Positions 21,821-48,389 of a stretch of 64,000 bases of DNA are shown piece by piece. The notes beneath the pieces are model-generated. The model did no database searches. It had not been told where the DNA came from and saw only the letters and a list, made by a program, of their open reading frames with translations. Position numbers and translations under genes: made by a program. How positions within the stretch are numbered: the stretch's first letter is position 1; each line of letters starts with the position of its first letter. Origin of the DNA: Lachnospiraceae bacterium (GTDB taxonomy: Bacteria > Pseudomonadota > Alphaproteobacteria > RF32 > CAG-239); contig CAVBCV010000002.1 of the NCBI GenBank assembly GCA_963594125.1, positions 42,211-106,210 on the forward strand, given 5' to 3'.

Positions 21821-22588
21821 ATGTATACATATTTTAGCCGCCTTTTACACCGCACGCCGTCACACTCCGACTTGATCGGAGTGTCCAGGTGGGGGAAATT
21901 TGCTAATTTGGTTGACCTGGACCATCGGGTCAAGCCCGATGGTGACAACATTGTGAATGCTGGTAGGTCTATGGTGGAAATGCTTGGCGTGCTCGCGATT
22001 ATCGGAGTGCTGAGTGTTGGTGCAATAAGCGGTTATAGCAAAGCCATGTACAAATATAAACTTAACAAACAAGCTGAACAGCTTAATACTGTAATAAATG
22101 CTGTTGCCCGCAATGCGCACAGCTTTGATAATTTGTTAGCCAATAAAGGCGCCTTTTATATAACTGATACTTTTGTTAAAATGGGTGAAATTCCAACTGA
22201 AATGCAATACAGCGAACATTATATCCGTGATGTGTTTAATCTTTTTTGGACAATAAGTATACTAAACTATGACACCGGCACTTCATTAAATTTATCAGCT
22301 AACGAAGAAGGCACTTTAAAAAATAAATCAGCAAATAATTTGGACATTTGCCGCAATATTATTACTGTTGCTAAGGAAAATTCAGACAGTATCGCTTCAG
22401 TCTCAAACGTGATTTATAATCAAGACAGCGATAACTATACCGCAACCTCTTTATATGGCGATGCGTACTGCCTATCGGGCAGACCTTGTTTAAGAAACTT
22501 GAGCCTTGACGATATTTATAACTTTTGCACAAAATTTACCGGCGGCGACAAGCTGCCTCAGCTTAAAATAACATGGTGGATTAAGTAA
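21821..22588 (+). CDS. type IV pilin-like protein, paralog 2 (long N-terminal extension)
   Basis: The ORF from the conserved ATG reads MYTYF...(about 47 aa)...NAG|RSMVEMLGVLAIIGVLSVGAISGYSKAMYKYKLNKQAEQL. The mature part is homologous to paralog 1. Four Cys in the C-terminal part. An alternative internal GTG/ATG start closer to the G|R site is possible. Confidence 0.65.
   Translation: MYTYFSRLLHRTPSHSDLIGVSRWGKFANLVDLDHRVKPDGDNIVNAGRSMVEMLGVLAIIGVLSVGAISGYSKAMYKYKLNKQAEQLNTVINAVARNAHSFDNLLANKGAFYITDTFVKMGEIPTEMQYSEHYIRDVFNLFWTISILNYDTGTSLNLSANEEGTLKNKSANNLDICRNIITVAKENSDSIASVSNVIYNQDSDNYTATSLYGDAYCLSGRPCLRNLSLDDIYNFCTKFTGGDKLPQLKITWWIK
21831..21961 (+). mobile_element. RPE-like palindromic insertion, in-frame in the pilin 5' region (copy A)
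   Basis: About 130 nt absent from paralog 1. It forms three consecutive hairpins: cactccga-cttga-tcggagtg, ccaggtggggg...ttgacctgg and ccatcggg-tcaagc-ccgatgg. The reading frame is preserved. Confidence 0.45.
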
Positions 22589-23552
22589 TTTCAGTAATCG
22601 CACGCAGGTTGCCATCGCGGTTAATTTGTACCACCCGTAGCTTATGGCGCATTTCTTCAATGGTTTTAACGCGGTCAATAGTCGGATAAGTATGCAAAAT
22701 ACGGTCGGTAAACGCCTGATACGCGGCTTCAGAGCTTTCAGCGTGAATAGTTGCCAAGCAGTTATCGTGACCGGAGCCCATCAGCTCCCACAAAGCGCCG
22801 GCGTTGCTGGTTGAAATTTCACCACCGATAATGGCGTCAGGCGTAAAACGCACTACAAGGTCAATAATTTTGGCATAGTCCATTTGGTTGGTTTGCTCAG
22901 TACGCGATAACACCAAATGCACGCGGTTAGGATGCGGAACCAAAAGCTCGCGCGTATCTTCAATGGTTACAATGCGCTTATGAATATCCAAAATTTTTAA
23001 CAAGTTGTTCAAAAAGGTGGTTTTACCGGTTGAAGTTGCGCCGCTGACTAAAATATGATCACCGCGCTTAATGCTTAACAACAAGCGTTCATACGGGTCT
23101 TCAGGGTCTTTAATCTGCTTTAAAGGGTTGATTTTGTGTAATCCATGTCCTTGCGACAAGCCGTAATCTTCAAGTCCGAAAGCAACCTCATCGCTATGAA
23201 CACGGATAGTTAAGGCCACGCCGCCGGTTAAGTCATCTTGGTCATACATGATGTTACGACCGGCAATGGCTGAAAAACGGTGATCGCCGGGGATTGTGGC
23301 GTACACTACCGGCGAGCCTTGAATCGGGTCAAACGGAAGCTCATAAGTGTTGGCAACAATATAAAGCAAGTCAGTTAAATACTCTTTTGAGAGCTTTTCA
23401 TCTTTGTACATTACCCACGGATAAGCCCTTTTACCGCGCAAGCGCAGCCAAATTTGACCGGAGCGGTTTATCGCCACCTCTTCAATGTTATCTTGATTAT
23501 ACCAATAAGAGAGCGGACGTAACACTGATTCTAAAACCGTAAATGTGCTCAT
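22581..23552 (-). CDS. virB11: type IV secretion ATPase VirB11
   Basis: ILVSGATSTGKTTFLNNLL P-loop (the GGTSTGKTTF-type Walker A typical of VirB11). TIEDTRELLVPHPNRVHLV (HPNRVHL as in VirB11). PDAIIGGEIS and CLATIHAESS His-box. 323 aa. Confidence 0.85.
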   Translation of the reverse strand: MSTFTVLESVLRPLSYWYNQDNIEEVAINRSGQIWLRLRGKRAYPWVMYKDEKLSKEYLTDLLYIVANTYELPFDPIQGSPVVYATIPGDHRFSAIAGRNIMYDQDDLTGGVALTIRVHSDEVAFGLEDYGLSQGHGLHKINPLKQIKDPEDPYERLLLSIKRGDHILVSGATSTGKTTFLNNLLKILDIHKRIVTIEDTRELLVPHPNRVHLVLSRTEQTNQMDYAKIIDLVVRFTPDAIIGGEISTSNAGALWELMGSGHDNCLATIHAESSEAAYQAFTDRILHTYPTIDRVKTIEEMRHKLRVVQINRDGNLRAITEIT

Positions 23553-23563
23553 GGGCTGTTCTC

Positions 23564-26500
23564 CTAGAATAACTGTGCCGAAGTGTTAGTGCTGCCGGCG
23601 GTTGACGACGGCGGAGGAGTTGCCCCCACTGAAGTTACCGGCGGAATTGCCTGTCGCTGCTGCTGTCTGCGCTTTTGCTTATTAGCCTCGGCATTATCAT
23701 CAATCAACGGAGTGGTCGGCTGAACATTATCAGCTTCATTATCCATATAAACAACGCCTTGAGTACCGCCGGAGGTTCCGGTACCGGAGCTGCCGCCACC
23801 GCTGCTCTTGCTTGAAGAACCTTGGTCACGGTCATCAATAAGAACCGTCGGCTTATTCAGAGCGTCAAGAGCTTCTTCATCGCTGCGGGCCGCAGTGCGT
23901 ATCCACAAATCTTCCTTAGGATAAATAATCAAACGAGTGCCGGCCGGAACATAAGTAATCGCCTCAATATTGGTTTTATCCTGCAAAATTTGATTAAACA
24001 TATCGTCCATGTTTTGCAAAAAGTTTTCACGGGCATCTTGCGCAGCCTCAGCGCGAGCATTTGAAGTAGTGCTGCCGTCAGATGAGGTTGAGGTTTCGCC
24101 ACTGGCGGCAATATACGCAACCGCGCTGCTCATCAAGGTGGTTACCATCGGCAAAGTATACTTTTTAAGCAACTGCTCATCAAGATAACCGATAGCTCCG
24201 CCGCGACCTTGAGCATCACCGGTTTGCGCCGATGAAAATTCAAACGCTGAGCCGTCAGGACGAATAAGCCGGTTCCAGGTAATAGAAACACGAACCGCGC
24301 CGCCGCTGTTACCGCCGCTTGAACCGCCGGAAGATGTGCCCATAACACGGCTACCGGCCGGAATAACGATATTGCGCCCTTGCTCGGCGTATACGTTGCG
24401 TTCAACAATCGCCGTTACCGGAGCGCTGTCTGAACCGTTGCTTGACATAATGGTACGAGCCAAAACAGCCGGAATCGGCTTATCAGCCAAAATCATTTCG
24501 CTCATATCAACACGCCAACTTGAAATTTGACGCGGAATACCGTCCCAATACGGCTGCATACCGTCAAAACTCTTGGTATCGGCATTGGTTGAAACTTTGC
24601 CGACCGTGATTTCCTGCCGACGAGCCGCCTGAGCCGCCGCTAACGCCGCCGCCCGAACCGGATCATATCTTTCTCCGGGACCAAAGCCGCCACCCGGACC
24701 TAAATTTGACGGATTGTTTCCGGTGCCGTAAGCGCCGCCCGAACCGAACGTGCCGGCCGGAATAAACATTTGTCCGCCTTTGTTGTCTTTAACTTCTTCA
24801 ATACCGATTAAGCCGCCTTCATTATCCACAATCAAGCCATCCGGCATTTTTTTACCGATTAAATTGCCAAGCTTATCAACAACATCATTGTTGATCAAAA
24901 TATCGCCAAGATAATTGCCGTCAGGCGTTAAGGCAATGCCGATGGTTTTAAGCCCGTATTTGCCGGTATCGTCCGTGGTGGAACCTTGCGGAACATCAAC
25001 AGCGCCGATATTGATTTTGCCGCTATCCGGTTTGCCGGTGCCATCGCGGCGGGGAGTGTTTGCCCAATCCGCCGGTTTAGGCTCGCTCGGTTTTACCACA
25101 TTATAATACTGCAGTTCTTTTGCTAATGCCAAAACTTTGCCGCTATCATCACTGATTTCACCGCTGCCGCTGATTTTACCGATAACTTTACCGTCATGAT
25201 TGATAACTTCGCCGTTTAAGCGCAGTTCGCCGATAACATTATTAGCGTCATCGCGGATAAAGTAATCACGGTTGCCGCGACCGATTAAAGTATAATCTTT
25301 GCTGACTAAAAAGCCTCTGTCGGCTTTGCCGATACGATTACCGGCAAAATTAAGCACTATTCCGTCACGGGTTAAATAACCAAGCGTGTTGCCTTCGTCA
25401 TCATAAACATAAAAATCATACAAGGCATAACCAATGTTTTTATTATCATTAACCACCGTACCGTCAGCCAAAACTTTACCTAAAATGTCGTTTTTATCGC
25501 TGATGACCGTGCCGTCTGAAGTTACACGACCTAAAAAGCTGTTATCATGGTTAAAGGCAACTTTATAGCGGAAAGCCATACCTAAAACCTCACCGCCTGA
25601 TGATAACGCCGTGTCATCAGGCTGCATATAACCGAGCTCTTTGTTAGTAGAGCTGATAATTTTGCCGCTGGTATTACTGCGACCAAGTATATTGTTTTCA
25701 AAGTCAATTACCGGGAATACTTCTGCCACCCGACCGATAAATTTACCGTCATTGTTATAATAGCGCCCATTCCAAGTAACACAGCCTAAATCTTCATGAT
25801 TGTAGTTAAGCAAATGTCCGAGCGGATTAACCGTGCCTAAGCCTTTACCGGCAAAGTCAGCAACCATGCCTGATTTTACGCCGAAGCCTATCATATTGCC
25901 AACCTCAGATACTGCCTGCCCATTGGTTAAAATTTTGCCAAGCACAACGCCGCGGCTGTTGCGGATTTCACCGCGCGGACCGATAACACCCAAAAATGAG
26001 CATTTGTTGTTAACCACGCTGCTCATATTGCTGATTTTACCGATTAATGATTTGTTGGTATCAGCAACAATATCACCACCTAAAACCGAACCGATTTTGT
26101 TACCGGCAAAATCTCGCACAGCGCCGAAAATATCAGCATAGCCAAGCATATCGCCACTGATTGAGGTTGCTAAAAATGATTGTCCGGCGCCGCCGATAAC
26201 CGGCATTTGCTTGTTATCAGGCGTTCCGGTTGCCGAAATGACTTTATAACCGGGGACAATTTTGCCGCTGATATTACCCTTTTCATCAGTGATTAAATTG
26301 GTTTCAGTTAACGAACCCAAACTCTGCCCATCAGCTGAAACGACAAAATACGGATTAAGCGTGCCGACAACAACTTTATTGGCTGCGTCAAGGGCTAAAC
26401 CGGTTGCAGTTAATTTATAATTTCTTTCAGCCGGAATGCCCTGCAATTCGGCATTAACACCGATATATCCGCTAAGCTCGCCCGCCTCAGTATACAAGGC

Positions 26501-27811
26501 TGAGAGCGGAACGGAATTTCCGACCAATAAATTATCGGCAGAATATACATATCCGAACGGCGAAACCTTAAATTTGTTAATGCCGTCTTCAGAAAAATCA
26601 GCTCCGATACCGCTTAAACCCACTAAATTGGAACTATTATCAAAAATCAGCGCTGTTTCAGGAGCGGCGCCGATAATGCGCCCGATATTATCATAAGCAA
26701 TTTTGCCTTTGGCATAACCAAGCGGCGTTCCGGTTACGGAAATAACCGCGCCGCTGCGCAAGATTTGAGCTTGCAGTTCAGCCAAATAATCAAACACCGG
26801 TCCCGATTTAATCACCTGACCGATAATTTTACCGTCAGGGTCTTTTACAAAACCGCGGGCAGTGATAGTACCTACGCTTTGCTGAGCCTTGTAAACGCTT
26901 CCGTCCGGCATAACGCGTCCTAAATATTTGCCTTTTAAATCCGTTGCCGTGGCGGCAATATCAATTTTAAAGCCGATAACCTCATTTTGATTGTTAATAA
27001 TTTTATCATCGGCGCGTAATTTGCCAACAACTTTACCCAAGCTGATAACCTCGCCGTTATAGGCAACCAAGCCAAGATATTTGCCGAAATTATCAAAAGC
27101 ATAACCGTTGGAAACCGCTTTACCGATAACTTTATTATTTTCATCATAAGCAAAACCGTTAGCATGAATTTTGCCGATAACTTTAGCCTCAAAATCCGTT
27201 ACTTTTCCGCCGGGGGCAATACTGCCGATAAAATCGCCGGTTGGCGAAACAACCATTTTGGCGGAAATTAATTTACCGTCTAACACATACCCGTTGCCGC
27301 TGTTACGATAAGCATAACCCATGGCGGAGATAAAACCGATATTTTGTCCTTCCATGCTGATATATTGCCCGTCGCCGGTTAAACGACCAATCGCGTCGCC
27401 TTTATCATTATAAACCAATCCCGGATATAAAACCGCGCCCAAAATATTGTACGAATCGTCAACCACTAAAGCATTCGGCAGCACTTTACCTACAATTTTG
27501 CCGGACGGAAGACGCACTGAGCCGTCATTATTTACTCGTCCTAAAAGTTTATTATCATTGCCGATAGCAATACCCTGAGGAATAATGCCGCCTTTAATCT
27601 CGCCTTTGTTATTTACAATAAAACTATCAGCGGTAATGTTGCCGATAACTTCATTGTCAAAGCTGACCACCGTACCGTCAGGAATAACCTTACCGATTAA
27701 ATCGCCGTTAAAATTAATGGCCGTAATTTCTTGCGCAAAAGCCGAACCGGCCGTCATACAAATGACCGCCGTTAACATGATTTTGCATAATTTCAGTAAT
27801 TTTCCTGCCAT
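23564..27811 (-). CDS. virB10: giant repeat protein with VirB10/TrbI C-terminal domain
   Basis: Start at MAGKLLKLCKIMLTAVICMTAGSAFA (signal or anchor; RBS ggagga upstream). About 1100 aa of about 11-residue tandem repeats (GxxIGxVxxDGxVxx). A Gly/Ser-rich linker follows. The C-terminus contains PAVLARTIMSSNGSDSAPVTAIVERNVYAE...RVSITWNRLIRPDGSAFEF...AITYVPAGTRLIIYPKEDLWI, matching the VirB10 beta-barrel domain. Confidence 0.7.
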   Translation of the reverse strand: MAGKLLKLCKIMLTAVICMTAGSAFAQEITAINFNGDLIGKVIPDGTVVSFDNEVIGNITADSFIVNNKGEIKGGIIPQGIAIGNDNKLLGRVNNDGSVRLPSGKIVGKVLPNALVVDDSYNILGAVLYPGLVYNDKGDAIGRLTGDGQYISMEGQNIGFISAMGYAYRNSGNGYVLDGKLISAKMVVSPTGDFIGSIAPGGKVTDFEAKVIGKIHANGFAYDENNKVIGKAVSNGYAFDNFGKYLGLVAYNGEVISLGKVVGKLRADDKIINNQNEVIGFKIDIAATATDLKGKYLGRVMPDGSVYKAQQSVGTITARGFVKDPDGKIIGQVIKSGPVFDYLAELQAQILRSGAVISVTGTPLGYAKGKIAYDNIGRIIGAAPETALIFDNSSNLVGLSGIGADFSEDGINKFKVSPFGYVYSADNLLVGNSVPLSALYTEAGELSGYIGVNAELQGIPAERNYKLTATGLALDAANKVVVGTLNPYFVVSADGQSLGSLTETNLITDEKGNISGKIVPGYKVISATGTPDNKQMPVIGGAGQSFLATSISGDMLGYADIFGAVRDFAGNKIGSVLGGDIVADTNKSLIGKISNMSSVVNNKCSFLGVIGPRGEIRNSRGVVLGKILTNGQAVSEVGNMIGFGVKSGMVADFAGKGLGTVNPLGHLLNYNHEDLGCVTWNGRYYNNDGKFIGRVAEVFPVIDFENNILGRSNTSGKIISSTNKELGYMQPDDTALSSGGEVLGMAFRYKVAFNHDNSFLGRVTSDGTVISDKNDILGKVLADGTVVNDNKNIGYALYDFYVYDDEGNTLGYLTRDGIVLNFAGNRIGKADRGFLVSKDYTLIGRGNRDYFIRDDANNVIGELRLNGEVINHDGKVIGKISGSGEISDDSGKVLALAKELQYYNVVKPSEPKPADWANTPRRDGTGKPDSGKINIGAVDVPQGSTTDDTGKYGLKTIGIALTPDGNYLGDILINNDVVDKLGNLIGKKMPDGLIVDNEGGLIGIEEVKDNKGGQMFIPAGTFGSGGAYGTGNNPSNLGPGGGFGPGERYDPVRAAALAAAQAARRQEITVGKVSTNADTKSFDGMQPYWDGIPRQISSWRVDMSEMILADKPIPAVLARTIMSSNGSDSAPVTAIVERNVYAEQGRNIVIPAGSRVMGTSSGGSSGGNSGGAVRVSITWNRLIRPDGSAFEFSSAQTGDAQGRGGAIGYLDEQLLKKYTLPMVTTLMSSAVAYIAASGETSTSSDGSTTSNARAEAAQDARENFLQNMDDMFNQILQDKTNIEAITYVPAGTRLIIYPKEDLWIRTAARSDEEALDALNKPTVLIDDRDQGSSSKSSGGGSSGTGTSGGTQGVVYMDNEADNVQPTTPLIDDNAEANKQKRRQQQRQAIPPVTSVGATPPPSSTAGSTNTSAQLF

Positions 27812-27821
27812 AGTTAACACT

Positions 27822-30800
27822 TTAATTCCTCCGATTTTGAGCAACTTCCTGCAATGCGTAACCTGATACATTTTTATCTAAGTCAACAAACGAGCCGTTG
27901 CTTTTTAAGTATCCGATGTCTTTACCGTTACCTGATATAACTCTGCCGGTTGCCGCCAAGCGTCCCAAATATTTACCGTCATTTGAAACTATCGCCGTTC
28001 CGGTTTTATAGGACATACCTAAAATAGCATTTTGATTATCAACCGCCAAGCGCCCTGATAAAACCCGTCCGATAACAGAATTATCAAACCCGCGAACCGT
28101 GCCGTCAAAGCCGACATAAGCCACAACTTTATCCTGATTGTTAATTACAATATCGGCATCGGCAATTTCACCTATTAAACGACCTTCTTTATTTACCGCT
28201 TTACCATCGGAATAAACTTTGCCGATAACCACATTTTTGGTATTGATTACCGCGCCGTCAGGCAATACGGAACCGATAATTTTGCCGCCGTAATTAATTA
28301 CAACGCCGCGTTTAAGCACACTTAAATTTTTATCGCTTGCGCCGCCGGGGAGTATAAAAGTTGTCCGTTTAGAATTTAAATCGCGCACTCCGCCGGAAGC
28401 ATCAGTGTATCCGGTATAATTTCCGAATAAGTCAGTTACCACCGATTCAGGCACAACCTCGCCGATTACATTGCCGTTATCAGCGTTTAAGATTAATCCG
28501 TCACTGTTTTCAAGACCGGCTTTTTTACCTTTTTTATCAATAACCGTGCCATCAGCTTTAACATAACCTAAATACGAACCGTCATAACCGATTGCGGCGC
28601 CGGTGCGAACAATGCCGCCCGCGTATTGGTGCTTATCATCAAACCAGCGACCTTTGGCATCAGCCTGCCCCAAGTGTTCGCCGAAACGAGTTACAACTCT
28701 GCCATCCGCATTAATAAAACCTACATTTTTGCCGTTAAAATCAACCACTTTACCAAACGGAAGCAGTTTGCCGATGTTGCCGATATAAAAGCTCATGCCA
28801 TCACCGTAAATGCGGTCAATCACAGCGCCTTTATTATCATAAACATTGCCGTCAGCAAACAGACGACCGATAATATTACCGTCTGAATTTAACAAAATAT
28901 TTTTTTCAGGCAACGCCACCCCGATTATCTTATTGTTTTTATCAGCAATGTATTTGTGCAAAAACAACTTGGCGTCAGGGTGAGCTTTAATTTGCAAGGA
29001 GCCGTCAGATTCAAACGTACCTAACAATTTTCCATTTAAATCAAAGGCATAAAACGGCTGCGAGATTTTACCCAAATAAATTCCGTCTGAGGTGAATACT
29101 TCATCGTCAGTATTAACACATCCCACCGGCAATAATGCCGCAGAAACAACGTTGCCGGTCGGCACTAATCTTCCGACTACCCCGCCTTCAGCATTAAACG
29201 CCACTTTATACCGCGCAACTTTGCCGATAATATCGCCGTTATCATTTAACACACTGCCATCAGGATTTACGCAGCCGACATATTTTTTATCTTCATTTTT
29301 AACAATACCCTGCTCATCGGCGTCGCCAAGATAATTGCAGCTATTGTCAAACACGCGACCGGTTTTTACAACATCGCCCATATAAATATTTTTTTCATTA
29401 TAAACACTGCCGTCAGCATACACATGATAAGGCATATCCTGCCCATCTTTGGTAATAACGCCGGTTTTATTTAAAACTCCGACATTAGAGCAGCCCCAAC
29501 CGATTATAGTACCGCCGCGAACACCTTTCGCCACAAATTTGGAGCCGTTAGCCTCTTTAACCAAAGTGTTCGGCAACATACGACCCAACACCTGACCGCG
29601 GGTATTAATAACTTCTCCGGTCGGCGAAACATTGCCTAAAACCTTGCCTTCCGGTGTTATCGGAATTAAATCTGCGCGAACAATAGCGCCGATTTTGACT
29701 GCTTTGTTACTGATGACATTGCCGTCTTTATCCACCCTGCCAACTATACCGCCGTCAGCGCCCACTACGGAACCGTCTTTTTTTACATAACCCAATACTT
29801 TGCCGTCATCACTGACTGCCAAATTATTATACTCTCCTACTCTGCCGACAATATTACCGCGCTCATCAATAATAGTGCCGTCAGGCTGCATTTTACCGAT
29901 AACCCGCCCGTTAGCGTCTAAAATAGTGCCATCTTCAAGCTTTTTCCCGATTTTGTTACCGTTAAAATCATAAATTGTGCCGTCTTCATCAATATAGCCG
30001 ACCGCATTTCCATCCGCGTCATAATATATCTGCCGCGACGCGCCGAGTTTACCGATTTTTTCATTGCTTAACTTATAGGCATCGCCGTTTTCATCAACAT
30101 AACCAACCACATTGCCATCCGTATCAACAATAGAGTTATCAGGCATAACCACGCCTAAAACATTGCCGCTTTCATCAACCGCGGTACGTCCGGGTTTGCT
30201 GACATAGCCGATAACATTGCCGTTCATATCAACAACTTCGCCATTAGAATTTAACCTGCCGATAACGTTACCTTCTTTATCTACCACCGTGCCGTCTTCA
30301 AGCACTCTGCCGATAACATTACCGTTGGAATCGTAAACATATCCGGCTTCTACCGATTTACCGATTTTTACCCCATTACGATCAACCACTGTACCATCAG
30401 ATATTTCTTTACCGATAACATTGCCGTTAAAATCAAAAGCTTTACCATCAGCGCTGACTTTACCAATAACATTGCCGTTATCGTCATAAATCAGTTTTTT
30501 ATTACCGGCGACACCGATAATATTGCCGTTTTCATCAACGATGAGTCCGTCTTCATTAACCCTGCCGATAACATTACCGTCTTCATCACGAACATAACCT
30601 TCATCATCAATATAACCGATGATTTTACCATCCGGACCATAGGCTATGCGGTTTTTGCCATCATCAGCCATGGCTTTGCCGATAGTTTTACCGCTTTTAT
30701 CCAAAACATTGCCTTTAGCATCCAAAGTGCCAAGTTTGTTACCGTTTAAGTCAACTACTTGCCCGTTCGGCGTAACATATCCGATAATATTGCCGCTTGT

Positions 30801-34404: not shown

Positions 34405-34593
34405 TTATATTGTTGCGACAAACCAATCCGGAAGGGTGTGCGGAAGCTCAACTTCAATGCAGGCGCACGGAGAAAGTTTAAGTTCGTTTACGTCTTTACC
34501 GACACCTACCGGCTCAGGCTCATAGTATGAACCGAACAAACTGCATGCCGACAAGACAACAATCACCAAAAATAGAATTATTTTTTTATACAT
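34405..34593 (-). CDS. virB7: small lipoprotein, VirB7-like
   Basis: 62 aa. MYKKIILFLVIVVLSAC lipobox. Located between two virB8 paralogs and upstream of virB9, as VirB7 is in rvh-type loci. The call is by position and size. Confidence 0.5.
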   Translation of the reverse strand: MYKKIILFLVIVVLSACSLFGSYYEPEPVGVGKDVNELKLSPCACIEVELPHTLPDWFVATI

Positions 34594-40824: not shown

Positions 40825-41503
40825 TGTCACCCTCCTGTGTTTTTTCTTTTTCATTTTCATAGTTTTGAATAGCCATAGTGCTCTTGTAGGCATTTATAGC
40901 GTCTTGCATACCCATAATTCTCTCCCATCTGGCGAGCGAGCGCAACTGCATAGCATTGCTGGCGTTAAACGCCTCTTCAATGGTGTTGAGCGAATAATCG
41001 GGGTCTTCTTCTTCTAACAACTCTTGCCGCAAAATCAGCGCTCTGGCGTATAACTGCGCTGCCGCAACCTGATTTTCACGGTTAATTGATTCACGCAATT
41101 TGCGCGCGACCGTGTTGTTGTGGTCTTCGCCCCAAGTGCGGTTATAGGTTGATTTTACGGTTTCAATATTTTCATCCTCGTTGGGTTTTTCATCCAAACT
41201 GTTTTCCATACCGGAGAGCACCGCGGTTTTAACAATATCTTTGGGATCAAGCTCATCAAGCTTAAAATCTTTAATATTTTGAATATCCTTTTTGGCATCG
41301 CGGAAACCCTGCTTAACCTCAGAGGAAAGATTTTTAGCCTCGGTTAAAACATCTTGAACCTGTTTTTTAACCGCTTCATATTTGATGACAAAGGCGTTAA
41401 TAGCGGCCTCTATCGCCTCAATATCAGCCTTTGCCGGCACTGCGTAAAGCACACCGGCTAAAAGCATGACTGCAAATTTTAACCGCCTATTCATTGCCTT
41501 CAT
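40811..41503 (-). CDS. secreted alpha-helical protein, VirB5/TrbJ-like by size and position
   Basis: About 230 aa. MKAMNRRLKFAVMLLAGVLYAVPAKA signal peptide. All-helical sequence. Downstream of virB4 where virB5 normally sits. Confidence 0.45.
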   Translation of the reverse strand: MKAMNRRLKFAVMLLAGVLYAVPAKADIEAIEAAINAFVIKYEAVKKQVQDVLTEAKNLSSEVKQGFRDAKKDIQNIKDFKLDELDPKDIVKTAVLSGMENSLDEKPNEDENIETVKSTYNRTWGEDHNNTVARKLRESINRENQVAAAQLYARALILRQELLEEEDPDYSLNTIEEAFNASNAMQLRSLARWERIMGMQDAINAYKSTMAIQNYENEKEKTQEGDNAEK

Positions 41504-43052
41504 CCTTATTTTCGTTTTTGTAATAATCAGGATCAAGCATTTCAATCGTGCTTACGCTTTCAGTAACCAACTGTCCGGTTAAAGATTCCATTAAGCGGAT
41601 AATTATTTCTTGGTTAATCAAGCCGACATTACCTGAAAATGAAATTTCTTCACGCTCGTTGGTTAAAGCCTCAGATTTTTTCTCAAGATCTTCATTAACC
41701 TTTAAGAAGTTAGCGGAATAGTTTTTATGCGTTAAGGCAACCGCCAAATCATTTGCGATGTGGTCATGCTTGGCGATTTTGTAAATACGGAGCCATTCCG
41801 CGGCAACTTCCGCATTGGGGTCATGCAAATCAACCACCCATTTTTTAACGCATTCCGCAACTTTTTCCTCGGAAAGTTCATCAACGTTCATATCGCATTT
41901 TTTAGCGATTTCGTCTGAGTAAATAAACTTACCGTCATCATTGGTTCCGGTTTTGAATTTAGGATTTTTCTTAACAAACTGAGCGAACGCCGCAGGTTTG
42001 GTCATCATGGCATACGAGCTGATAATGTCCTCGGTTTTATCGGCGGCGGAAGTGTTATACTTAAAGCGACGCGCGCCGCCTGAGGCGCTGTCCTCATCAA
42101 AATCAGGTTTAAGGAGCGGTCTGTCATTAAAATCGGGCATAACTCCACCGAATCCGGAATCATCGCTGCTATCAAAGTCAGGAGTTACCGGAAGTTCAGA
42201 ATCGCTCGGTTCATCGGGCAAGCTCGGAACATGCGGATTGTCAGGCTCGCTCGGGGCTGACGGAGTGGTAGGTAATTGCGGCTTATCACTGCCCGGGGTC
42301 GGCTCAGGAACATCATCAAAACCGCCGTCATAGCCGAAGTCATCATCAAAGTTTTCATCAAACTCTTCATCGCCGGTATCCCAATCTTCACTGTCGGAGC
42401 CGTTACCGGTATCAGGGCGATATGATAATGAAACATCGTCAAATTTGCCTTTAGCGGTATTATATTTTTGCAGAGCCTCAAGATATTCGTCTTCAAGCGC
42501 GGCTCTTTCCGCTTCAGAGGCGTTTTCATAACGCTGTTTTATGCTCTCATACTCTGATTTAGCCCGCTCATAGTCAGCCTTGGCGGAGTCATAAGCTTTT
42601 TGACCATCGCTGTTATACTTATCGCCGTTACCTATAATGTCTTTGGTGGTAGCGGAAAGGTTATATTTGCCAAGTTGCAAATACGGGTCTTTGATATTGT
42701 TAATAATGCTGCCGATTTCAGCCTCCCACTGAGCGCGCAATTTTGCCAAGCGCTCGGCGCGGCGTTTTTTCTTTTCAAGACGCTGACTGAGTTTTTCAGC
42801 CTTTTCTTTTTCATCAACGAATTTAGACAGAGCGCCGACATTATCGCCGATTGCCTGCTGAATTTTGCCGACAGATAAGGTTGATTTAATGGTTGAGGCG
42901 GTTGATTTTGCCTTAGTGACATAGCCGGAGATGGTGTTAAGCACCTCGGCAATATCAAAAGTCGGCCATAAAAAAGCCTGACATGGGGTGGTGTGTAAAG
43001 CAACGCATATAAACGCCATTGCGGTTACGAGTGTAAGTGTTTTCTTTTTCAT
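41487..43052 (-). CDS. secreted coiled-coil/acidic protein (521 aa)
   Basis: MKKKTLTLVTAMAFICVALHTTPCQA signal. Coiled-coil block (KEKAEKLSQRLEKKKRRAERLAKLRAQWEAE). Acidic Pro/Asp-rich region and a C-terminal globular domain. No TM. Confidence 0.55.
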   Translation of the reverse strand: MKKKTLTLVTAMAFICVALHTTPCQAFLWPTFDIAEVLNTISGYVTKAKSTASTIKSTLSVGKIQQAIGDNVGALSKFVDEKEKAEKLSQRLEKKKRRAERLAKLRAQWEAEIGSIINNIKDPYLQLGKYNLSATTKDIIGNGDKYNSDGQKAYDSAKADYERAKSEYESIKQRYENASEAERAALEDEYLEALQKYNTAKGKFDDVSLSYRPDTGNGSDSEDWDTGDEEFDENFDDDFGYDGGFDDVPEPTPGSDKPQLPTTPSAPSEPDNPHVPSLPDEPSDSELPVTPDFDSSDDSGFGGVMPDFNDRPLLKPDFDEDSASGGARRFKYNTSAADKTEDIISSYAMMTKPAAFAQFVKKNPKFKTGTNDDGKFIYSDEIAKKCDMNVDELSEEKVAECVKKWVVDLHDPNAEVAAEWLRIYKIAKHDHIANDLAVALTHKNYSANFLKVNEDLEKKSEALTNEREEISFSGNVGLINQEIIIRLMESLTGQLVTESVSTIEMLDPDYYKNENKDEGNE

Positions 43053-43132: not shown

Positions 43133-45565
43133 TTACGCCATATTTAAATATTTTGTAACAAAGTTCTCTTCTCCGTATTCTTTAATCAACTGTTCAACCA
43201 ATAATACGTTTTTATTACCGGAGTTGTACAGTTTAAGATAAGGTCCTAACGCCCCTAAGTTGACGTCTAGCACCACTGACTCATCGGTGTCCGGTCGTTT
43301 AAGCAAAATAGCGTACGGAAAATCGCGATAAGTTTTACCAAATATAAAGTCAAGCTCGCTTTGCGTAAGGTTCCAGTTGGCATAATCCTCCGGCAAAGCC
43401 TGCGCATTACGGAAAAAGATCATTGTTTTACATTGTCCGCGGATAACCTCGCCGACGCCTAATTTATCAACAATATTCGGTTGTTGGAACGCGCACAAAT
43501 ACGCCTGACGTTTTTTACGACCTTCTTGCAAACCGATGATAAAGTAATCACGGAACATCGGGTGTTTTAACATCGGCGCGGTTTCATCAATCATAATCAA
43601 TGTAGGCGCACCGGTAGCGCTGGCTTCAGTTTGAATACGGTGCATGATGTAACTGATTACCGCCGGAGCCAAGGTTTCATCTTCAAAGATGTGGGTAAAG
43701 TCAAACGCCATAAAACGCTTAGACTTTAAGTCAAGGCTATCGGTATCGGAGTTAAAAATATTGCCGTATTGGTCAGGATTTACCCAGCGATAAAGTTCGC
43801 GGCGCATGGTTCCGGTCGGTGAAAAACAGCTTTTGTAAAGGTTTTTCATAATACGTTCTTCCGGACGCAAATAGTCAAACGCGGTAGTAACGGCGCGGGC
43901 AATTTCACGTTCAGATAAGGCATCGTCCGCCATGGTGATAGACTTCATCCAACGGCGCAAAAAGGCGCGGTTGTTGGGGGTATTGTCTGTGTCAAACGGG
44001 TTTAGAGTAACGTTCTTTTCATCACCGTCAAAGCCGACATAAGCGCCGCCGATAGAACGGGTGAAAATTTTGGCACCGTTAAGGCGGTCAAAGAAGAACA
44101 CTTTTAAGTCACCATGGCGCATCGCCTGCCCTGCCAAAAAGGTAAGCAAAGTGGTTTTACCTTGACCGGTAGGACCGATAATACAGCAGTGAGCAACGGC
44201 GTATTCATCAGATGTAATATGAAATTGGAAGCGGTACGCCGAACCTGACATGGTGCGGAACACCGTGATGGCTCCCGGACCCCAGTCACTTTTGCCGAAA
44301 CCTTCTGACGGTTTGTCAAACGAGATAGCAAGCGCAACCACGCGCGATAAGTAACGATAAGTTCTGGGATAAGTGTCATAAGTCGGGAACTGGCTGAAGA
44401 AAGTTGCCTGCGTAACCCAACCCTCGCGCACCGGCGTTACGCCATAGGTGCGGCAAATACGTTGAACTTCGCTCTCGCCAAAGTCAAGCTCTTCTTTGCT
44501 GGAGCCCTTGATTAAAATACTCATTGAATATTCGGTTAAAGCCTGATAATCGGCGTCGCTATCTTCAATGGTGGAAAGAGCTTGTCCGTATTGGTTAACC
44601 ACTTCAGATGAAAAGCTGGTTAAAGTTGCCATACGCTGTTGCTGAATAAGCATCATGCGGGCTTGCGGCTTAAAGATTGGGCGCACGTTATGCAAAAGAA
44701 CCAACTCGCAGTCTATGGAAAGGAGCGAAACTATCATGCTCTCGTCCATATAGTCGCCGGTGGTGCGAATACCCATTACAATTTCATATAATTCCTTATC
44801 GCCGCTGAAAAAGCGGATAATGCCGTCTTCACGCGTAAAGTGGATATGGTCGGCGGTGAGCATTTCATTAAGCTCGGCGCCTTTGGCGTTGCGAACCTTG
44901 GGCAGCGGCCTTGAAACCGGACTGCACAAGCGGCTGAAAACATAAAACGGGCTGTCGGTTGCCGGACCGTCGGGGCTTTCAAGCATCGGGGTAACCCCAT
45001 ATTCGCCAAGGGTGGCAATCAGCGATTGGCTGGCGTAGTTTAAGTCTTTGAGCGCGTCCTTGCGGTCAATAACCGATAATATAATATAGTGTTTATTGCT
45101 ATAAACACGGCTCATATTATCCATCCAAATTTCAGAAACTTTTTCCAAAATTTCGTTGTTGAAGTTGCCCTGCTCGTTATCAAGCGCGGTGCGTTCGCGG
45201 TCAGTGATAACGCGGCAAACAATTTGCAGCTCTGAAAGGTTGTCAATCCATGATTTGCGGGCTTCCATCATGGAATACATTTTTTCCGGAGTGGCGGAGC
45301 CTAAGTCAAGCCCGGTAACACGAAACACACGAGCGTACGAGCCGTTGGTGCAACGAATGGTCATGCCGTCTGACATAATTTCAGCAAACGGCAAAAAGTC
45401 TGACACGCGCGACTCACGCGGCTGAGGCAAAACCCACGAGCCGAACTTGGACGAGAGCAAAACCGCAAACGCCGCCGCTGAGATAAAACCGACAACAGCC
45501 ACCACAACTTCAGCGTTGGTGAGGCCGGAGACAAACATATTAAAAAAATCAAAATCAGGGCTCAA
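43133..45565 (-). CDS. virB4: type IV secretion ATPase VirB4
   Basis: 810 aa. Walker A CIIGPTGQGKTTLL, Walker B LIMIDETAPML. N-terminal membrane-associated segment. Immediately follows a VirB3-like gene with a 4-codon-scale overlap. Confidence 0.9.
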   Translation of the reverse strand: MSPDFDFFNMFVSGLTNAEVVVAVVGFISAAAFAVLLSSKFGSWVLPQPRESRVSDFLPFAEIMSDGMTIRCTNGSYARVFRVTGLDLGSATPEKMYSMMEARKSWIDNLSELQIVCRVITDRERTALDNEQGNFNNEILEKVSEIWMDNMSRVYSNKHYIILSVIDRKDALKDLNYASQSLIATLGEYGVTPMLESPDGPATDSPFYVFSRLCSPVSRPLPKVRNAKGAELNEMLTADHIHFTREDGIIRFFSGDKELYEIVMGIRTTGDYMDESMIVSLLSIDCELVLLHNVRPIFKPQARMMLIQQQRMATLTSFSSEVVNQYGQALSTIEDSDADYQALTEYSMSILIKGSSKEELDFGESEVQRICRTYGVTPVREGWVTQATFFSQFPTYDTYPRTYRYLSRVVALAISFDKPSEGFGKSDWGPGAITVFRTMSGSAYRFQFHITSDEYAVAHCCIIGPTGQGKTTLLTFLAGQAMRHGDLKVFFFDRLNGAKIFTRSIGGAYVGFDGDEKNVTLNPFDTDNTPNNRAFLRRWMKSITMADDALSEREIARAVTTAFDYLRPEERIMKNLYKSCFSPTGTMRRELYRWVNPDQYGNIFNSDTDSLDLKSKRFMAFDFTHIFEDETLAPAVISYIMHRIQTEASATGAPTLIMIDETAPMLKHPMFRDYFIIGLQEGRKKRQAYLCAFQQPNIVDKLGVGEVIRGQCKTMIFFRNAQALPEDYANWNLTQSELDFIFGKTYRDFPYAILLKRPDTDESVVLDVNLGALGPYLKLYNSGNKNVLLVEQLIKEYGEENFVTKYLNMA

Positions 45566-45845
45566 ATTTATTCCCCTTTTCCGGATACAAATTTTTTGAA
45601 ACTACGTTGGTTTGCCCGAAAGCCTGAATCATTGCCGAAAGATGAGGTTCCTTAACTCCGGCAAATACAATGGCGGCATGCACCAACACAAACGTGACCA
45701 CAAAAAGCAACGGGTTAATATCTGCTACACCGATTGCCATAAACATTACCGGAAACTGAATGCCGGCATTAAGCACCACAGGCAAAACCGGCCCCCAAAA
45801 TATTTTGGGCGGCTGAGCCACTGCTTTTAATATCATATCCTGCAT
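45555..45845 (-). CDS. virB3: VirB3-like membrane protein
   Basis: 96 aa with two hydrophobic helices. PVLPVVLNAGIQ...LVHAAIVFAGVKEPHLSAMIQAF resembles the VirB3/TrbD core. Overlaps the virB4 start. Confidence 0.6.
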   Translation of the reverse strand: MQDMILKAVAQPPKIFWGPVLPVVLNAGIQFPVMFMAIGVADINPLLFVVTFVLVHAAIVFAGVKEPHLSAMIQAFGQTNVVSKNLYPEKGNKFEP

Positions 45846-45972
45846 TTTATGCTTCCTCTAATAATTTATGTTTATATTTTTAAGCGGTATTTAAGCCGCG
45901 TCAACTGCTTTTAGCAAATAATCCACTTTTTAGCAAAACAGCAGGCGGAGTTTGCAGGCTCCGCCCGTTTAA

Positions 45973-47157
45973 TTAATTGCCGAAAAAGCCATCCATACGG
46001 TCGCCGAGTTCCTCAGCTCTTTTACCGGTTTGGTAAGTTTCTCTGCCTAAAACAGCAGCGCCACCTGCCGCATCAGCTCCACCCTGAATACCGCCGGTTA
46101 CAGTACCAACCGCCGTGCCAACACCGGAGTTAGCAATGCCTGACGATCCGGCGTTAGTGCCGCTGACGCCGTCAATCACATAGCCCAAATTAGCTAAAAA
46201 GTTTTGGAAATTACCGTTAAGTTGACCGCTGCTGGTGTAAATTTGGTCAGCGCTCATCCCAACCGACGCCGCCAACGCGCCCAATTTATCTAACGCCTTG
46301 CCGTCACCGGAGATAATATCGCCGATACGCACCGCGCCGTTTTCAGTGGCTTTTTTGAGTAATTTAGCGTATTCAACCGCGTTAAGAGCCTGATTGGCAC
46401 CGGCAATACCGGCATTGGCGATGCGAATAATATCCGCCATTACCTGCGCCGGATTTTTTTGGCATACACCGTTTTGAATTTTGCCGGAACAGCATTGACG
46501 CGCGCCGTTGTTATAACGACAGCCGTTGGAATCCCAGTCGGTAACCGTAGGAGCATTGCTACTGGTCGGCGGAATTATACCGCCGCCGTTAGCGCCTTCA
46601 GCGCCGCTGCTGACGCCGGGGATAGCCGGCAGATTAAAGCCGCCGGATTGTGTGCCAGGGTCATCTTTGCCGTCAGGATCTTTATCGCCGGGGGTTTTGT
46701 CAAGCTGGTCTTGCATTTCTTGGTTAGGATCTCGGTCAGGGTTGCCGTCCGGGCATTCTTGACCTTTACAATCTTTGCCGCCGTCGTCTGTTTCCGGAAT
46801 GTCGCTGCCTTGAATTGACGAGCCGCCGCGAATAAAGTTGCCGTAGCTGAACTGAGAATCTTCAAGATTAACTCCGGCAAAATAGTTAATAAACGGCATC
46901 ATTACCGCTAATAACGACAAACCAATCATGATATAAGCAAGGTGCTTAAAGCTGATTTTGTTAAAAATCGCCAGCGTGGTGAACATAATTAAGCCGAAAC
47001 CGGCAATAACATAAACAATACGGCGAACATCTATCACCGTGGTCATCATTTTTTGCGATATTACCTGAAAGATGTTATCCGCCGCCATGGCGCTTGCCGG
47101 AAGCAGCAGCACGCCCAAAAGCAGAGTTAAAAACAAATATTTAAATTGATGTTTCAT
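45973..47157 (-). CDS. VirB2/TrbC-like pilin core with about 280-aa Gly-rich, Cys-containing C-terminal extension
   Basis: Signal peptide MKHQFKYLFLTLLLGVLLLPASAMA. Two hydrophobic helices (IVYVIAGFGLIMFTTLAIF / AYIMIGLSLLAVMMPFINYF) as in T-pilins. A long G/D/P-rich tail with CxxxxC pairs follows. Confidence 0.5.
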   Translation of the reverse strand: MKHQFKYLFLTLLLGVLLLPASAMAADNIFQVISQKMMTTVIDVRRIVYVIAGFGLIMFTTLAIFNKISFKHLAYIMIGLSLLAVMMPFINYFAGVNLEDSQFSYGNFIRGGSSIQGSDIPETDDGGKDCKGQECPDGNPDRDPNQEMQDQLDKTPGDKDPDGKDDPGTQSGGFNLPAIPGVSSGAEGANGGGIIPPTSSNAPTVTDWDSNGCRYNNGARQCCSGKIQNGVCQKNPAQVMADIIRIANAGIAGANQALNAVEYAKLLKKATENGAVRIGDIISGDGKALDKLGALAASVGMSADQIYTSSGQLNGNFQNFLANLGYVIDGVSGTNAGSSGIANSGVGTAVGTVTGGIQGGADAAGGAAVLGRETYQTGKRAEELGDRMDGFFGN

Positions 47158-47179
47158 GACCGCCTCCGTTTAAGTTAAA

Positions 47180-47530
47180 TTATTCGCCGGTTTTTAAGGT
47201 GTCGGAAATGCCGCTGACACTGATATCCGCGCCGGTGCCCGCCGCTAAATAGTTAATAATGCCGGCGGTGGCGGCTATTACTATCAGACCGATAATAATG
47301 GCGCTGAGCCACTTCCAGTTAAGGGCGCCGAAAAAGCTGCCGATGGCGATGGCGATAATACCAAAACCGGCGGCGCCGTAAATAATGCCTTTCATGCCCT
47401 CAAAAATTTCACCGCCGGTTCGGGTTAAATCTTCAAACACGGCGTAAGAATCAGTTGCGCATAAAATTGAAGAAAGCGCAAAAACCAGCAAACCAAAGCT
47501 GAGGTATTTCTTTAAATTTATAAGCAACAT
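47180..47530 (-). CDS. virB2: VirB2/TrbC-like T-pilin
   Basis: 116 aa. Signal peptide plus two TM helices (GIIYGAAGFGIIAIAIGSFFGAL / LSAIIIGLIVIAATAGIINYL). Confidence 0.6.
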   Translation of the reverse strand: MLLINLKKYLSFGLLVFALSSILCATDSYAVFEDLTRTGGEIFEGMKGIIYGAAGFGIIAIAIGSFFGALNWKWLSAIIIGLIVIAATAGIINYLAAGTGADISVSGISDTLKTGE

Positions 47531-47539
47531 TGTTTAATT

Positions 47540-47572
47540 CTCCTTAAAATAATTTAAGCGCAGGGGAAAGCG
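47540..47572 (-). terminator. possible attenuator/terminator between virB2 paralogs
   Basis: GC-rich hairpin caggggaaagc-gcga-ggctttcccc with a flanking T-run on the plus strand and an A-run on the other side. Confidence 0.3.
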
Positions 47573-47602
47573 CGAGGCTTTCCCCTTTTTTGATGGCACA
47601 AA

Positions 47603-47979
47603 TTAGAAGCCATTACCTGTTGATTGTTTGAAGGTATCATCAAATCCGGTTGAACCTTCTTGAATTTTCTTTTGACCGGTTGCGTAATCAACAATCGCAC
47701 CGGCAGCGGCAAGCACCGCCAAACCAACGGCTAAACCTGCGAACCATGCCCATTTTACTTTACCGAAAATAGCTTGGAACGCCAAGCCGACTAAACCGAA
47801 ACCGCCGACTACGAAAATAATGGTTTTAACGGCTTTGAACACGTTAAGAGCTTTATTAGTAGCAATATCCATAACCGTCGTACCACCAACAGTTTGAGCA
47901 CTTGCATCGCCGACCAAAGACATCGTAAAGACTAAGCCTAAGGCGAACAATGTGAATAAATTGTTTTTAAGAAACTTCA
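47603..47979 (-). CDS. virB2: VirB2/TrbC-like T-pilin (first gene of operon)
   Basis: Start at MKFLKNNLFTLFALGLVFTMSLVGDASA (ATG 47979, RBS AAGGAG). Two TM helices (IIFVVGGFGLVGLAFQAIF / AWFAGLAVGLAVLAAAGAIV). Confidence 0.6.
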
Positions 47980-48389
47980 TTGTTTTTCTCCTTAAATATC
48001 GTGACAAAACTTCTTATACACTTATAGAATACCAGATTTGAGAACATTTTGCCAGTTTTTTATAGTCTGCGCAATTTTTGTTAACACTTTGTTTTTAATA
48101 CAAAAACATGCCGTGTAACAAAAAATTCATATTCACCTTCGGCATTCAATACGGGCTTTAGTATATTTTTAAAAGGTAAAAAAATCTCTAATTTTTTAAA
48201 ACAGCTTTTGGTTTAAAAATTTGCAAAACGCTTGCGGCAGAAAAAATTTCCGCAACTTCATTATATTAACGCAATTTTAAGGTTATCAGTTGTATCTTTT
48301 TTATAACCGGAAGGGCGATTTGCGCCCAAATTGTATGCAAACGCATTGATTTGGCGTGATAAATTGCCGTATTAGGAGTTTGGAATTTT

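Follow-up and report, generated by a model that had tools for sequence, protein, structure and literature searches.

Does a type IV secretion system (T4SS) of the VirB type that is encoded without a coupling protein, without a relaxase and without any recognisable VirB6 still transport a substrate, or does it serve another purpose? This question is raised by a locus on contig CAVBCV010000002.1 (assembly GCA_963594125.1) of a gut-associated alphaproteobacterium assigned to the order RF32 in GTDB, which was analysed within a stretch of 64 kb (positions 42,211 to 106,210 of the contig; this whole stretch is referred to as the window, and all positions are given in its coordinates). The locus comprises sixteen open reading frames (ORFs) on the minus strand (22581-48007, ~25.4 kb), all of them present at the coordinates given by an earlier, model-made reading of this DNA (the original prediction). 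As the gaps between them are at most 140 nt long or are replaced by short overlaps, the sixteen ORFs form one operon, which encodes, in this order, three VirB2, VirB3, VirB4, four helical proteins with signal peptides, VirB8, VirB7, a second VirB8, VirB9, a repeat-containing giant, VirB10 and VirB11. Based on our analysis we suggest that the locus, on balance, probably builds an adhesion organelle of the kind known as Trw from Bartonella, i.e. a variable attachment pilus and not a device for cargo injection. As part of the same proposal, and with a similarly modest preponderance, it would be located on the chromosome, inherited vertically and descended from a rare lineage of conjugative (P-type/VirB-like) T4SSs of Alphaproteobacteria.

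The affiliation with the P-type (VirB/MPF-T-like) T4SSs is based on VirB4, on VirB7, VirB9 and the VirB10 C-domain, and on VirB8, VirB3, VirB2 and VirB11. The hidden Markov model (HMM) libraries of Pfam and NCBIfam were scanned with the ORFs of the window save about six small ones. VirB4 (43133-45565; 810 aa; TIGR00929, 1.7e-111; PF03135) has an intact Walker A motif (GPTGQGKT) and an intact Walker B-like motif (LIMIDE), and VirB11 (22581-23552; 323 aa; TIGR02788, 1.6e-41) carries the Walker A motif GATSTGKT. The closest plasmid-borne VirB4 proteins are those of Microvirga pMVF16-3 (39% identity), Sphingosinicella p1 (35.5%) and a plasmid of Erythrobacter aureus (35.4%), and the operons around them, termed sister operons or sister plasmids here, were used for several of the assignments below. 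The two VirB8 paralogs are 31% identical to each other. Paralog a (33645-34391; 248 aa; PF04335, 5.3e-21; NF010439, 1.1e-14) has VirB8 from Bartonella as its best match in the PDB (7e-9), followed by Agrobacterium VirB8 and R388 TrwG, and paralog b (34734-35492; 252 aa; PF04335, 1.7e-14), the more divergent copy, weakly matches VirB8 from Brucella and Bartonella. A VirB7-type lipoprotein of 62 aa with the lipobox LSAC is encoded between them (34405-34593). Its motif LKLSPCAC corresponds to SLKRTPCAC in the small lipoprotein encoded upstream of virB8 in the sister plasmids (blastp 3.5e-12 for Erythrobacter, 1.9e-9 for Microvirga). VirB9 (31950-33626; 558 aa; PF03524, 1.3e-12; TIGR02781, 9e-9) continues via a long Gly/Asn-rich linker into a weakly matching SPOR-like C-terminal domain (0.0019; residues ~484-556). 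With no VirB1 encoded in the locus, this putative peptidoglycan-binding end could anchor the core complex in the cell wall.

VirB3 (45555-45845; 96 aa), a protein with two transmembrane (TM) segments whose gene overlaps the start of virB4 with its end, has no direct match in Pfam or NCBIfam. In a blastp search against a set of 25 proteins it matches VirB3 from Microvirga (1.7e-6), which is itself PF05101-positive, i.e. the assignment is transitive only. All HMM scores, including that of VirB4 with TIGR00929, are below the NCBIfam family cut-offs and thus the system is a divergent member of its family. Nevertheless, the original prediction of a VirB-type T4SS is borne out by the single operon and by HMM support for most components, and its assignments of VirB3, VirB7, VirB8 and VirB9 stand, that of VirB3 by way of the Microvirga homolog only.

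The three VirB2-like proteins are encoded at the head of the operon. Paralog 1 (47603-48007; 134 aa) exceeds the Pfam threshold of PF04956 (TrbC; 1.1e-8, 35.6 bits) and consists of a signal peptide and two hydrophobic helices as judged by hydropathy, paralog 2 (47180-47530; 116 aa) is marginally over the same threshold (2.3e-6, 28.2 bits) and matches Microvirga VirB2 in blastp (1.5e-12). The third protein (45973-47157; 394 aa) shows a weak PF04956 match at residues 2-83 (18.5 bits) and a blastp match to Microvirga VirB2 (1.7e-5); here an N-terminus with signal peptide and two TM segments is fused to a Gly/Pro/Asp-rich tail of ~300 aa. The orthologs of this third protein range from 135 to 934 aa (e.g. 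L025 6720-9524 and L067 6683-9433), and the tail of variable size may be a displayed surface module.

Of the species-level genomes searched, 292 yielded a relative of VirB4. All counts over 80 loci refer to the best 80 of them, in which the search extended 10 kb to either side of virB4. All 80 stem from gut or rumen metagenomes (human, primate, ruminant, rabbit, mouse, chicken) and nearly all from uncultured Alphaproteobacteria or Proteobacteria; examples are Ca. Scatocola, placed in the Rhodospirillales by NCBI, 'Proteobacteria bacterium CAG:495' and 'Azospirillum sp. UMGS63', a lineage that we take to be the GTDB order RF32. In seven related loci the gene order was compared gene by gene and is identical in all seven (VirB2 copies, B3, B4, helical proteins, B8, B7, B8, B9). 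Moreover, single genes of the operon were recovered by tblastn in most of the 80 loci, VirB3, for example, in 78 of them with 55-99% identity. This constant synteny and recurrence mean that the arrangement is conserved far beyond chance. Between virB4 and virB8, 34 loci have four genes and 27 have five or six; the final pair always encodes a protein of ~400-480 aa followed by one of ~1220-1650 aa. Median identity across the loci decreases from VirB4 (77%), VirB7 (72%) and VirB3 (64%) to the pilins (41-57%) and the four helical proteins (26-34%).

The ratio of nonsynonymous to synonymous substitution rates (dN/dS), determined relative to the closest relative (L001), is lowest in the core (0.02-0.06), slightly higher in the helical proteins (0.06-0.09) and highest in the pilins (0.17-0.28; 0.17 and 0.24 for VirB2 paralogs 1 and 2; 0.28, the maximum of the operon, for the third VirB2-like protein). 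From this range it follows that every gene is under purifying selection and functional, with the surface parts evolving fastest. The absence of relaxase, VirD4 and VirB6 might also suggest that the locus is a decaying, functionless remnant of an integrated conjugative element, but this idea is effectively refuted, as all 16 ORFs are intact, synteny is maintained at 76-96% VirB4 identity over 80 genomes, the flanks are housekeeping genes (uppS, cdsA, pyrH, plsY, dprA, topA, mlaA, gpsA, lemA) and the GC content across the locus is unremarkable; a pseudogenised element, in particular, is ruled out by the dN/dS values.

Signal peptides and TM segments were called by hydropathy and by eye, without a dedicated predictor. 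On this basis the only ORFs of the window with at least five TM segments are those for the housekeeping proteins CdsA and PlsY, a Bax1-I protein and a DUF2207 protein, and no polytopic VirB6/TrbL was found in the operon, elsewhere in the window or, for the related loci that were inspected, in the 10 kb on either side of virB4. As a positive control, the scan detected the six-TM VirB6 of an outgroup plasmid in the expected slot. Similarly, tblastn yielded no match for VirD4, a relaxase or a DnaB-like gene in the window or in the 80 related loci, and no SLT motif that would indicate VirB1 was found. The lack of VirB6, VirD4 and VirB1 pointed out in the original prediction thus applies to the locus and to the entire window. 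This is unusual in the case of VirB6/TrbL, a protein with 4-6 hydrophobic helices to which high conservation in all T4SSs has been ascribed (PMC12857230).

Which proteins are then encoded in the slots after virB4? In agreement with the original prediction, they are secreted, non-membrane helical proteins: by hydropathy, the proteins of 521, 227, 415 and 1352 aa have signal-peptide-like N-termini ending in CQA, AKA, ARA and ADA, respectively, and no other hydrophobic segment. They share with VirB5 the Sec signal peptide, an all-helical character and gene positions directly after virB4. Their identity was suggested by the sister operons, and their profiles were compared with a VirB5 reference family, i.e. 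35 homologs of a 251-aa protein from Erythrobacter, many of them PF07996-positive. The Erythrobacter protein itself passes the Pfam VirB5 model (PF07996, 6.8e-7; 30.3 bits vs a cut-off of 24.7), and a profile of 27 of the 35 homologs matches R388 TrwJ in the PDB (2e-4). HHalign probabilities refer to the whole 35-sequence alignment as target, and all reversed alignments used as controls gave at most 1.6%.

The 227-aa protein (40811-41494, counted from Met18 of a 244-aa ORF) aligns over its full length with this PF07996-positive family (94.8%, E 5e-8; reversed control 0.5%), and the value rises to 95.9% (E 5.5e-9), again over the full length, if an alignment of 110 sequences is used; default hhalign with a shallower alignment gives 71% over a core motif of 38 columns. 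Its AlphaFold2 (AF2) model is all helical but unusable (predicted local distance difference test score, pLDDT, 37.6). A HMMER profile of its family retrieves just 172 cluster representatives from 1.84 billion, some of which are proteins of 450-580 aa with the module at one end. For the 521-aa protein (41487-43052), which has a long acidic/Pro-rich insert, the N-terminal 80 residues reach 92.7% and a collinear C-terminal piece 8% (reversed control 0.1%), and five of 34 family members match DUF4141 (1.3e-4 at best). The 415-aa protein (39577-40824, counted from Met24 of a 438-aa ORF) gives two collinear matches, 46% and 32%, from end to end (control 0.6%), and the HMM of its family matches the Erythrobacter VirB5 at both ends. 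In the 1352-aa giant (35505-39563) a VirB5-like N-domain (~1-260) precedes a helical rod that includes two small beta domains with Cys residues; the N-terminal 250 residues reach 81.6% with the superfamily of the 227-aa protein and 34-37% with the VirB5 family directly, and the middle and C-terminal segments, taken as controls, at most 3%.

A direct match to PF07996 was found neither in the four proteins nor in 27-34 orthologs of three of the families (that of the 415-aa protein was not scanned) nor in 146 representatives of the 227-aa family, and Pfam/NCBIfam scans as well as sequence and profile searches of the PDB returned only coiled-coil noise (SMC, tropomyosin and similar). Profile homology is thus complete for the 227-aa protein only, which is well supported as a remote homolog of VirB5, and partial for the other three, which are probable VirB5-like paralogs. 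The original prediction had allowed that the four might turn out to be known variants of VirB5 or VirB6; they do appear to be remotely VirB5-like, one strongly and three more weakly, but they are too distant for current models.

The giant adjoins the virB8/virB7 genes, i.e. it occupies the slot of VirB6 in canonical operons. It has no sequence match in Pfam or the PDB, and many of its residues are invariant among the relatives. Residues 300-1352 are modelled by AF2 with a pLDDT of 81.8 and a predicted TM-score of 0.70, and a fold search with this model returned generic helical hairpins at most. A cryptic VirB6 was considered and rejected, as the model buries the helix that gives rise to the sole hydrophobic peak (918-936, hydropathy 1.65). 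Another view would be that signal-peptide proteins such as this 1352-aa rod are not parts of the machine but its cargo, i.e. that the locus is a two-step, Sec-dependent exporter like Ptl from Bordetella, in which periplasmic substrates cross the outer membrane to become soluble or surface-bound. This would agree with the lack of VirD4, with four Sec-type signal peptides on fast-evolving proteins of the operon and with a weak fold resemblance of the rod to the alpha-pore-forming toxins AhlB/SmhB and XaxA/YaxB. The resemblance is not significant (Foldseek E at least 0.03, TM-score ~0.33) and typical of any long helical hairpin, and the VirB5-like nature of the proteins points to structural tip or stalk subunits. 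Ptl, moreover, is not known to have a VirB5 and retains VirB6; on balance, we regard such an exporter as improbable.

Among the systems compared, which on the side of the Rickettsiales included only the solved VirB8 from Rickettsia, the closest relatives found are rare conjugative plasmid systems of Alphaproteobacteria rather than rvh loci. The sister operons are arranged in the order MobA/MobL, DnaB-like, B2, B3, B4, a protein of ~250 aa, a protein termed X (420-480 aa), a small lipoprotein, B8, B9, B10, B11 and VirD4, and the same order is found on four metagenomic contigs (L084-L087). On L084 the VirD4 gene (17564-20728) encodes 1054 aa including an intein (Hom_end_hint and LAGLIDADG matches), the VirD4 of the similar contigs being 699 aa long. 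The plasmid systems resemble the present locus in sequence (35-39% identity for VirB4, 41-42% for VirB11, 35-38% for VirB9), in the PCAC-motif lipoprotein, in the order B2-B3-B4-B5...B7-B8-B9-B10-B11 and in a VirB5-like protein in the VirB6 slot. They differ in being conjugative elements, equipped with VirD4, a relaxase (MobA/MobL) and a DnaB-like helicase. VirB2 and VirB8 are single in them, the VirB5-like genes number only two, their VirB10 (530-590 aa) is free of beta-flower arrays, and no type IVb pilus is linked to them.

Between relaxase and VirD4 the sister plasmids encode no polytopic protein, with the exception of Microvirga. There, between its two VirB5-like genes, pMVF16-3 encodes a protein of 228 aa (L081 23216-23902) that has some four TM segments and no Pfam match. 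The other sister elements lack this protein, and tblastn does not recover it in the gut loci; it may represent a minimal VirB6 or a relic. In the sister plasmids the VirB6 slot is taken by protein X, which has a signal peptide and resembles VirB5 over its first 250 residues (HHalign 98.1%, E 1e-13); X-type proteins occur in two of 72,556 plasmids. HHalign does not support orthology of the giant and X (0.2-1.7%), the hints being the position and a Pro-rich mature N-terminus alone. The next-closest plasmid group, the outgroup of the TM control, is from Ca. Paracaedimonas (VirB4 29.7%) and has the order B2-B3-B4-B5, a 348-aa six-TM protein, B8-B9-B10, one gene and B11. From this, the loss of VirB6 dates back to the root of the clade that unites the gut locus with the conjugative plasmids.

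The original prediction had offered two options, completion of the system in trans or a divergent machine. The machine is indeed divergent, and the need for completion in trans is weakened because relatives that still carry relaxase and VirD4 likewise lack VirB6. The platform role of VirB6 would thus have passed to a VirB5-derived paralog, or else be filled by a gene located elsewhere in the genome. We speculate, tentatively and with some doubt, that the entire lineage, i.e. the gut chromosomal system and the rare conjugative plasmids, truly works without any VirB6 and derives both its stalk and its assembly platform from VirB5-derived paralogs, the candidates for the platform being the long proteins of the VirB6 slot (420-480 aa in the plasmids, 1352 aa here). 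In the literature we found neither a T4SS described for this lineage nor a T4SS without VirB6, and a VirB6-free lineage, if true, would contradict the universality of VirB6. As current models regard VirB6 as the platform on which VirB5 and VirB2 are assembled, the locus and its conjugative relatives offer a test, provided by nature, of whether a T4SS can do without VirB6.

A second peculiarity concerns VirB10. The gene assigned to it (23564-27871; 1435-aa ORF) combines a signal-peptide-like N-terminus, ~1000 aa of beta-flower repeats (Bflower_2, 6.6e-51, eight stretches) and a TrbI/VirB10 C-domain (PF03743, 3.1e-32, residues 1127-1323), and it also matches NF038091 and NF038092. Translation probably starts at Met21 (27811), which would result in a cleavable-looking signal peptide (...AGSAFA-QE) in place of the usual membrane anchor. 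The preceding gene (27822-31937) encodes the 1371-aa repeat giant, in which a short basic cytoplasmic tail, a TM segment (residues 19-37, hydropathy 2.93), an 'EPVF' motif and an ASH/Ig-like domain (a weak match to ASH) are followed by repeat arrays (Bflower_2, 6.2e-89, 11 stretches; DUF3659, 1.5e-52, four stretches). In both proteins the arrays are built from 17-residue repeats (51-nt period) of the families PF21785, PF21784 and DUF3659. As their copies are just 60-75% identical in DNA, the repeats were rejected as substrates for recombination or phase variation.

The pattern of basic tail, TM segment, 'EPVF' motif and Ig-like domain recurs at the N-termini of VirB10 from the sister plasmids. 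In local alignments the first 215 residues of the repeat giant match those of Microvirga (z 6.2) and Erythrobacter (z 7.1), a score reached by none of 300 shuffles; the match to VirB10 of two other relatives is not significant, and HHalign with two sequences gives 3%. Thus, the repeat giant is probably not an additional component but the detached N-terminal half of VirB10. With moderate confidence we propose that an ancestral VirB10 was expanded by repeats and then split into an inner-membrane half (27822-31937) and an outer-membrane half (23564-27811). The pair of repeat giant and giant VirB10 is conserved in one relative (L088). The beta-flower fold, a relative of the Tubby clan without known function, has been described from AlphaFold models only (PMC10584680). 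The present locus provides the first functional context that we came across for such arrays, as ~2000 residues of a VirB10-type, envelope-spanning subunit.

Upstream of the T4SS operon, and divergent from it, lies a type IVb pilus operon (48390-59832, plus strand; Pfam and NCBIfam matches) that encodes a 595-aa protein, a TcpQ-like protein, a secretin, PilO, a PilP-like protein, an assembly ATPase, a platform protein, a bundlin/PilS-type pilin and a 265-aa protein. The two operons are separated by an intergenic region (48008-48389) with promoter-like sites on both strands, five vs 2.2 expected, which is weak evidence. Of the related loci with enough flank, 51 of 64 have the type IVb operon in the same divergent position. 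In addition to the assembly ATPase (55510-57174, plus strand) a PilT-like ATPase of 319 aa is encoded nearby (59904-60863, minus strand; TIGR01420, 2.3e-32, under the family cut-off), and the two pilus ATPases suggest a retractile pilus, uncommon among type IVb systems. At the other end of the T4SS operon a type IV pilin-like ORF (21821-22588, plus strand) is convergent with virB11 and overlaps it by 8 nt. Its N-terminus is of the prepilin type (GRSMVEMLGVLAIIGVLSVGAISGY, in which the Gly is followed by Glu at +5) and is shared with the paralogous ORF 11419-12054 (plus strand). Neither has a Pfam match; both probably encode type IV pilins or minor pilins outside the pilus operon.

The window contains neither tRNA genes nor Rfam matches. 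Between 8000 and 12000 the GC content is 0.35-0.38 vs ~0.44, and this stretch, beside topA, looks like a small inserted island with genes for a zeta-toxin (8481-9437), a small lipoprotein-like protein (9735-10166) and a RhuM-family protein (10291-11280). A further ORF (15775-16773, plus strand) encodes a secreted protein of 332 aa with dozens of Cys residues (C-x-C, C-x3-C) and no Pfam match.

The vicinity of a type IV pilus operon, dprA in the window (4550-5692) and the fact that the VirB10 C-domain fits best to the ComB10 model (NF038092, 1.2e-31, under cut-off) may raise the idea of a system for DNA uptake or release, like ComB or the gonococcal genetic island, with neither relaxase nor coupling protein in the locus. 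However, dprA is 17 kb away beside topA, with which it forms a common housekeeping pair, and DNA release requires both a relaxase and a coupling protein, neither of which was found in the window or the 80 loci. ComB systems, in turn, are not known to have VirB11 or VirB5 and keep VirB6, the reverse of the situation here, and we therefore consider a role in DNA uptake or release highly improbable.

An adhesion organelle that is derived from a conjugation system would account for what has been lost, kept and multiplied. Relaxase and VirD4 are lost and the envelope machine (VirB3, VirB4, VirB11, two VirB8, VirB7, VirB9) is kept complete and under selection, VirB2 has been multiplied to three copies and the VirB5-like proteins to four (four to six in relatives), and VirB10 is expanded by beta-flower repeats and apparently split. 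The VirB5-like proteins and the pilins would be exported by Sec, VirB4 and VirB11 would power the assembly of a VirB2 polymer under a VirB5-type cap, and the resulting variable pili or adhesins may fasten the cell to the surface of a host or partner, alongside the neighbouring type IVb pilus. Following the logic of Trw, the machine would move no cytoplasmic substrates. An effector-less surface or attachment organelle had already been suggested in the original prediction and is also favoured here, on the grounds of gene content and the analogy with Trw.

Several points weigh against this proposal. The function is read from gene content alone, and genes for VirD4 and VirB6 could lie outside the 64 kb (or, in the relatives, outside the 10 kb around virB4). 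Brucella VirB and Bordetella Ptl are systems that lack VirD4 and are still able to secrete. Homology to VirB5 is solid for one protein and only moderate for three, none of the four being detected by Pfam, and the split of VirB10 is deduced from two of four pairwise comparisons. Finally, gene-wide dN/dS values below 0.3 are no proof of positive selection. The host lineage recurs in gut metagenomes of humans, primates, ruminants and poultry, and its interaction with the host is almost undescribed. An operon of 25 kb that is under purifying selection, recurs in this lineage and has a type IVb pilus as its neighbour makes a prime candidate for a colonisation apparatus.

How does the locus compare with known systems? 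The rvh system of Rickettsia typhi has the order VirB8-VirB7-VirB8-VirB9-VirB10-VirB11, and its genes are scattered over several loci (PMC4676284). This order, which the original prediction had recognised as the rvh arrangement, is found here too, with an extra giant gene between virB9 and virB10, and both systems have an alphaproteobacterial host and no VirB1. Other hallmarks of rvh were not found in the window. In rvh four or five extended, polytopic VirB6 paralogs follow virB4, no VirB5 is known, virD4 follows virB11, and VirB4 and VirB9 are duplicated, whereas the window has no VirB6 array, one VirB4 and one VirB9. In a PDB search (E at most 0.01) neither VirB8 matched the solved VirB8 from Rickettsia, which was the only representative of the Rickettsiales in this comparison, the matches being those from Bartonella, Agrobacterium, R388 and Brucella. 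Only one VirB8 is encoded in each of the closest relatives found. The duplication may well have occurred independently of rvh.

These comparisons also bear on the idea that the locus encodes an effector-translocating T4SS like rvh or the VirB system of Brucella, with VirD4 and VirB6 encoded elsewhere or VirD4 dispensable, and with the helical proteins as accessory or tip parts aimed at host or protist cells. Both ATPases, VirB11 included, are intact, the scattered rvh genes share the partial order described above, and the host lineage is gut-associated, all of which would be compatible with this idea. Yet VirD4 is missing from 64 kb and from 80 related loci, and a convergent pilin-like gene adjoins virB11, where virD4 is located in rvh and in the sister plasmids. 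Together with the lack of a VirB6 array, the presence of VirB5-like genes and the lack of a PDB match of either VirB8 to the solved VirB8 from Rickettsia, this renders effector translocation unlikely.

An enlarged, repeat-rich VirB10 (CagY), an enlarged VirB9 (CagX) and VirB5-like adhesins (CagL, CagI) are known from the Cag system of Helicobacter. In contrast to the present locus, Cag has an established effector as well as VirB6 (CagW) and VirD4 (Cag-beta); its repeats are of an unrelated kind, and no sequence relationship was seen.

Bartonella Trw, which stems from the conjugation system of the IncW plasmid R388, lacks the coupling protein TrwB, has amplified, fast-diverging trwL and trwJ genes and mediates adhesion to erythrocytes, a role that variant pili are proposed or shown to play (PMC2883598; see also PMC4676284). 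Like Trw, the present locus is chromosomal and, in our reading, derived from a conjugation machine, it has neither coupling protein nor relaxase in the window and in the 80 related loci, and its multiple VirB2 and VirB5-like proteins, three and four, respectively, diverge faster than the core. The two systems are not closely related in sequence, R388 TrwG and TrwJ being distant matches only, and their hosts differ, i.e. a gut commensal lineage here and a blood-borne pathogen in the case of Bartonella. Trw has kept VirB6 (TrwI) and amplified it together with TrwJ and TrwH, and its VirB5 paralogs are tandem near-copies, whereas those of the gut locus are very unequal (227 to 1352 aa); the duplicated VirB8, the repeat-expanded and apparently split VirB10 and the linked type IVb pilus are also peculiar to the latter. 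Taken together, the locus is a real, conserved and previously undescribed variant of the T4SSs, much of which follows the amplification of VirB5 and VirB2 known from Trw-like systems; the absence of VirB6 throughout the clade, the 1352-aa rod with its VirB5-like head and the split VirB10 full of beta-flower repeats remain its unusual features.

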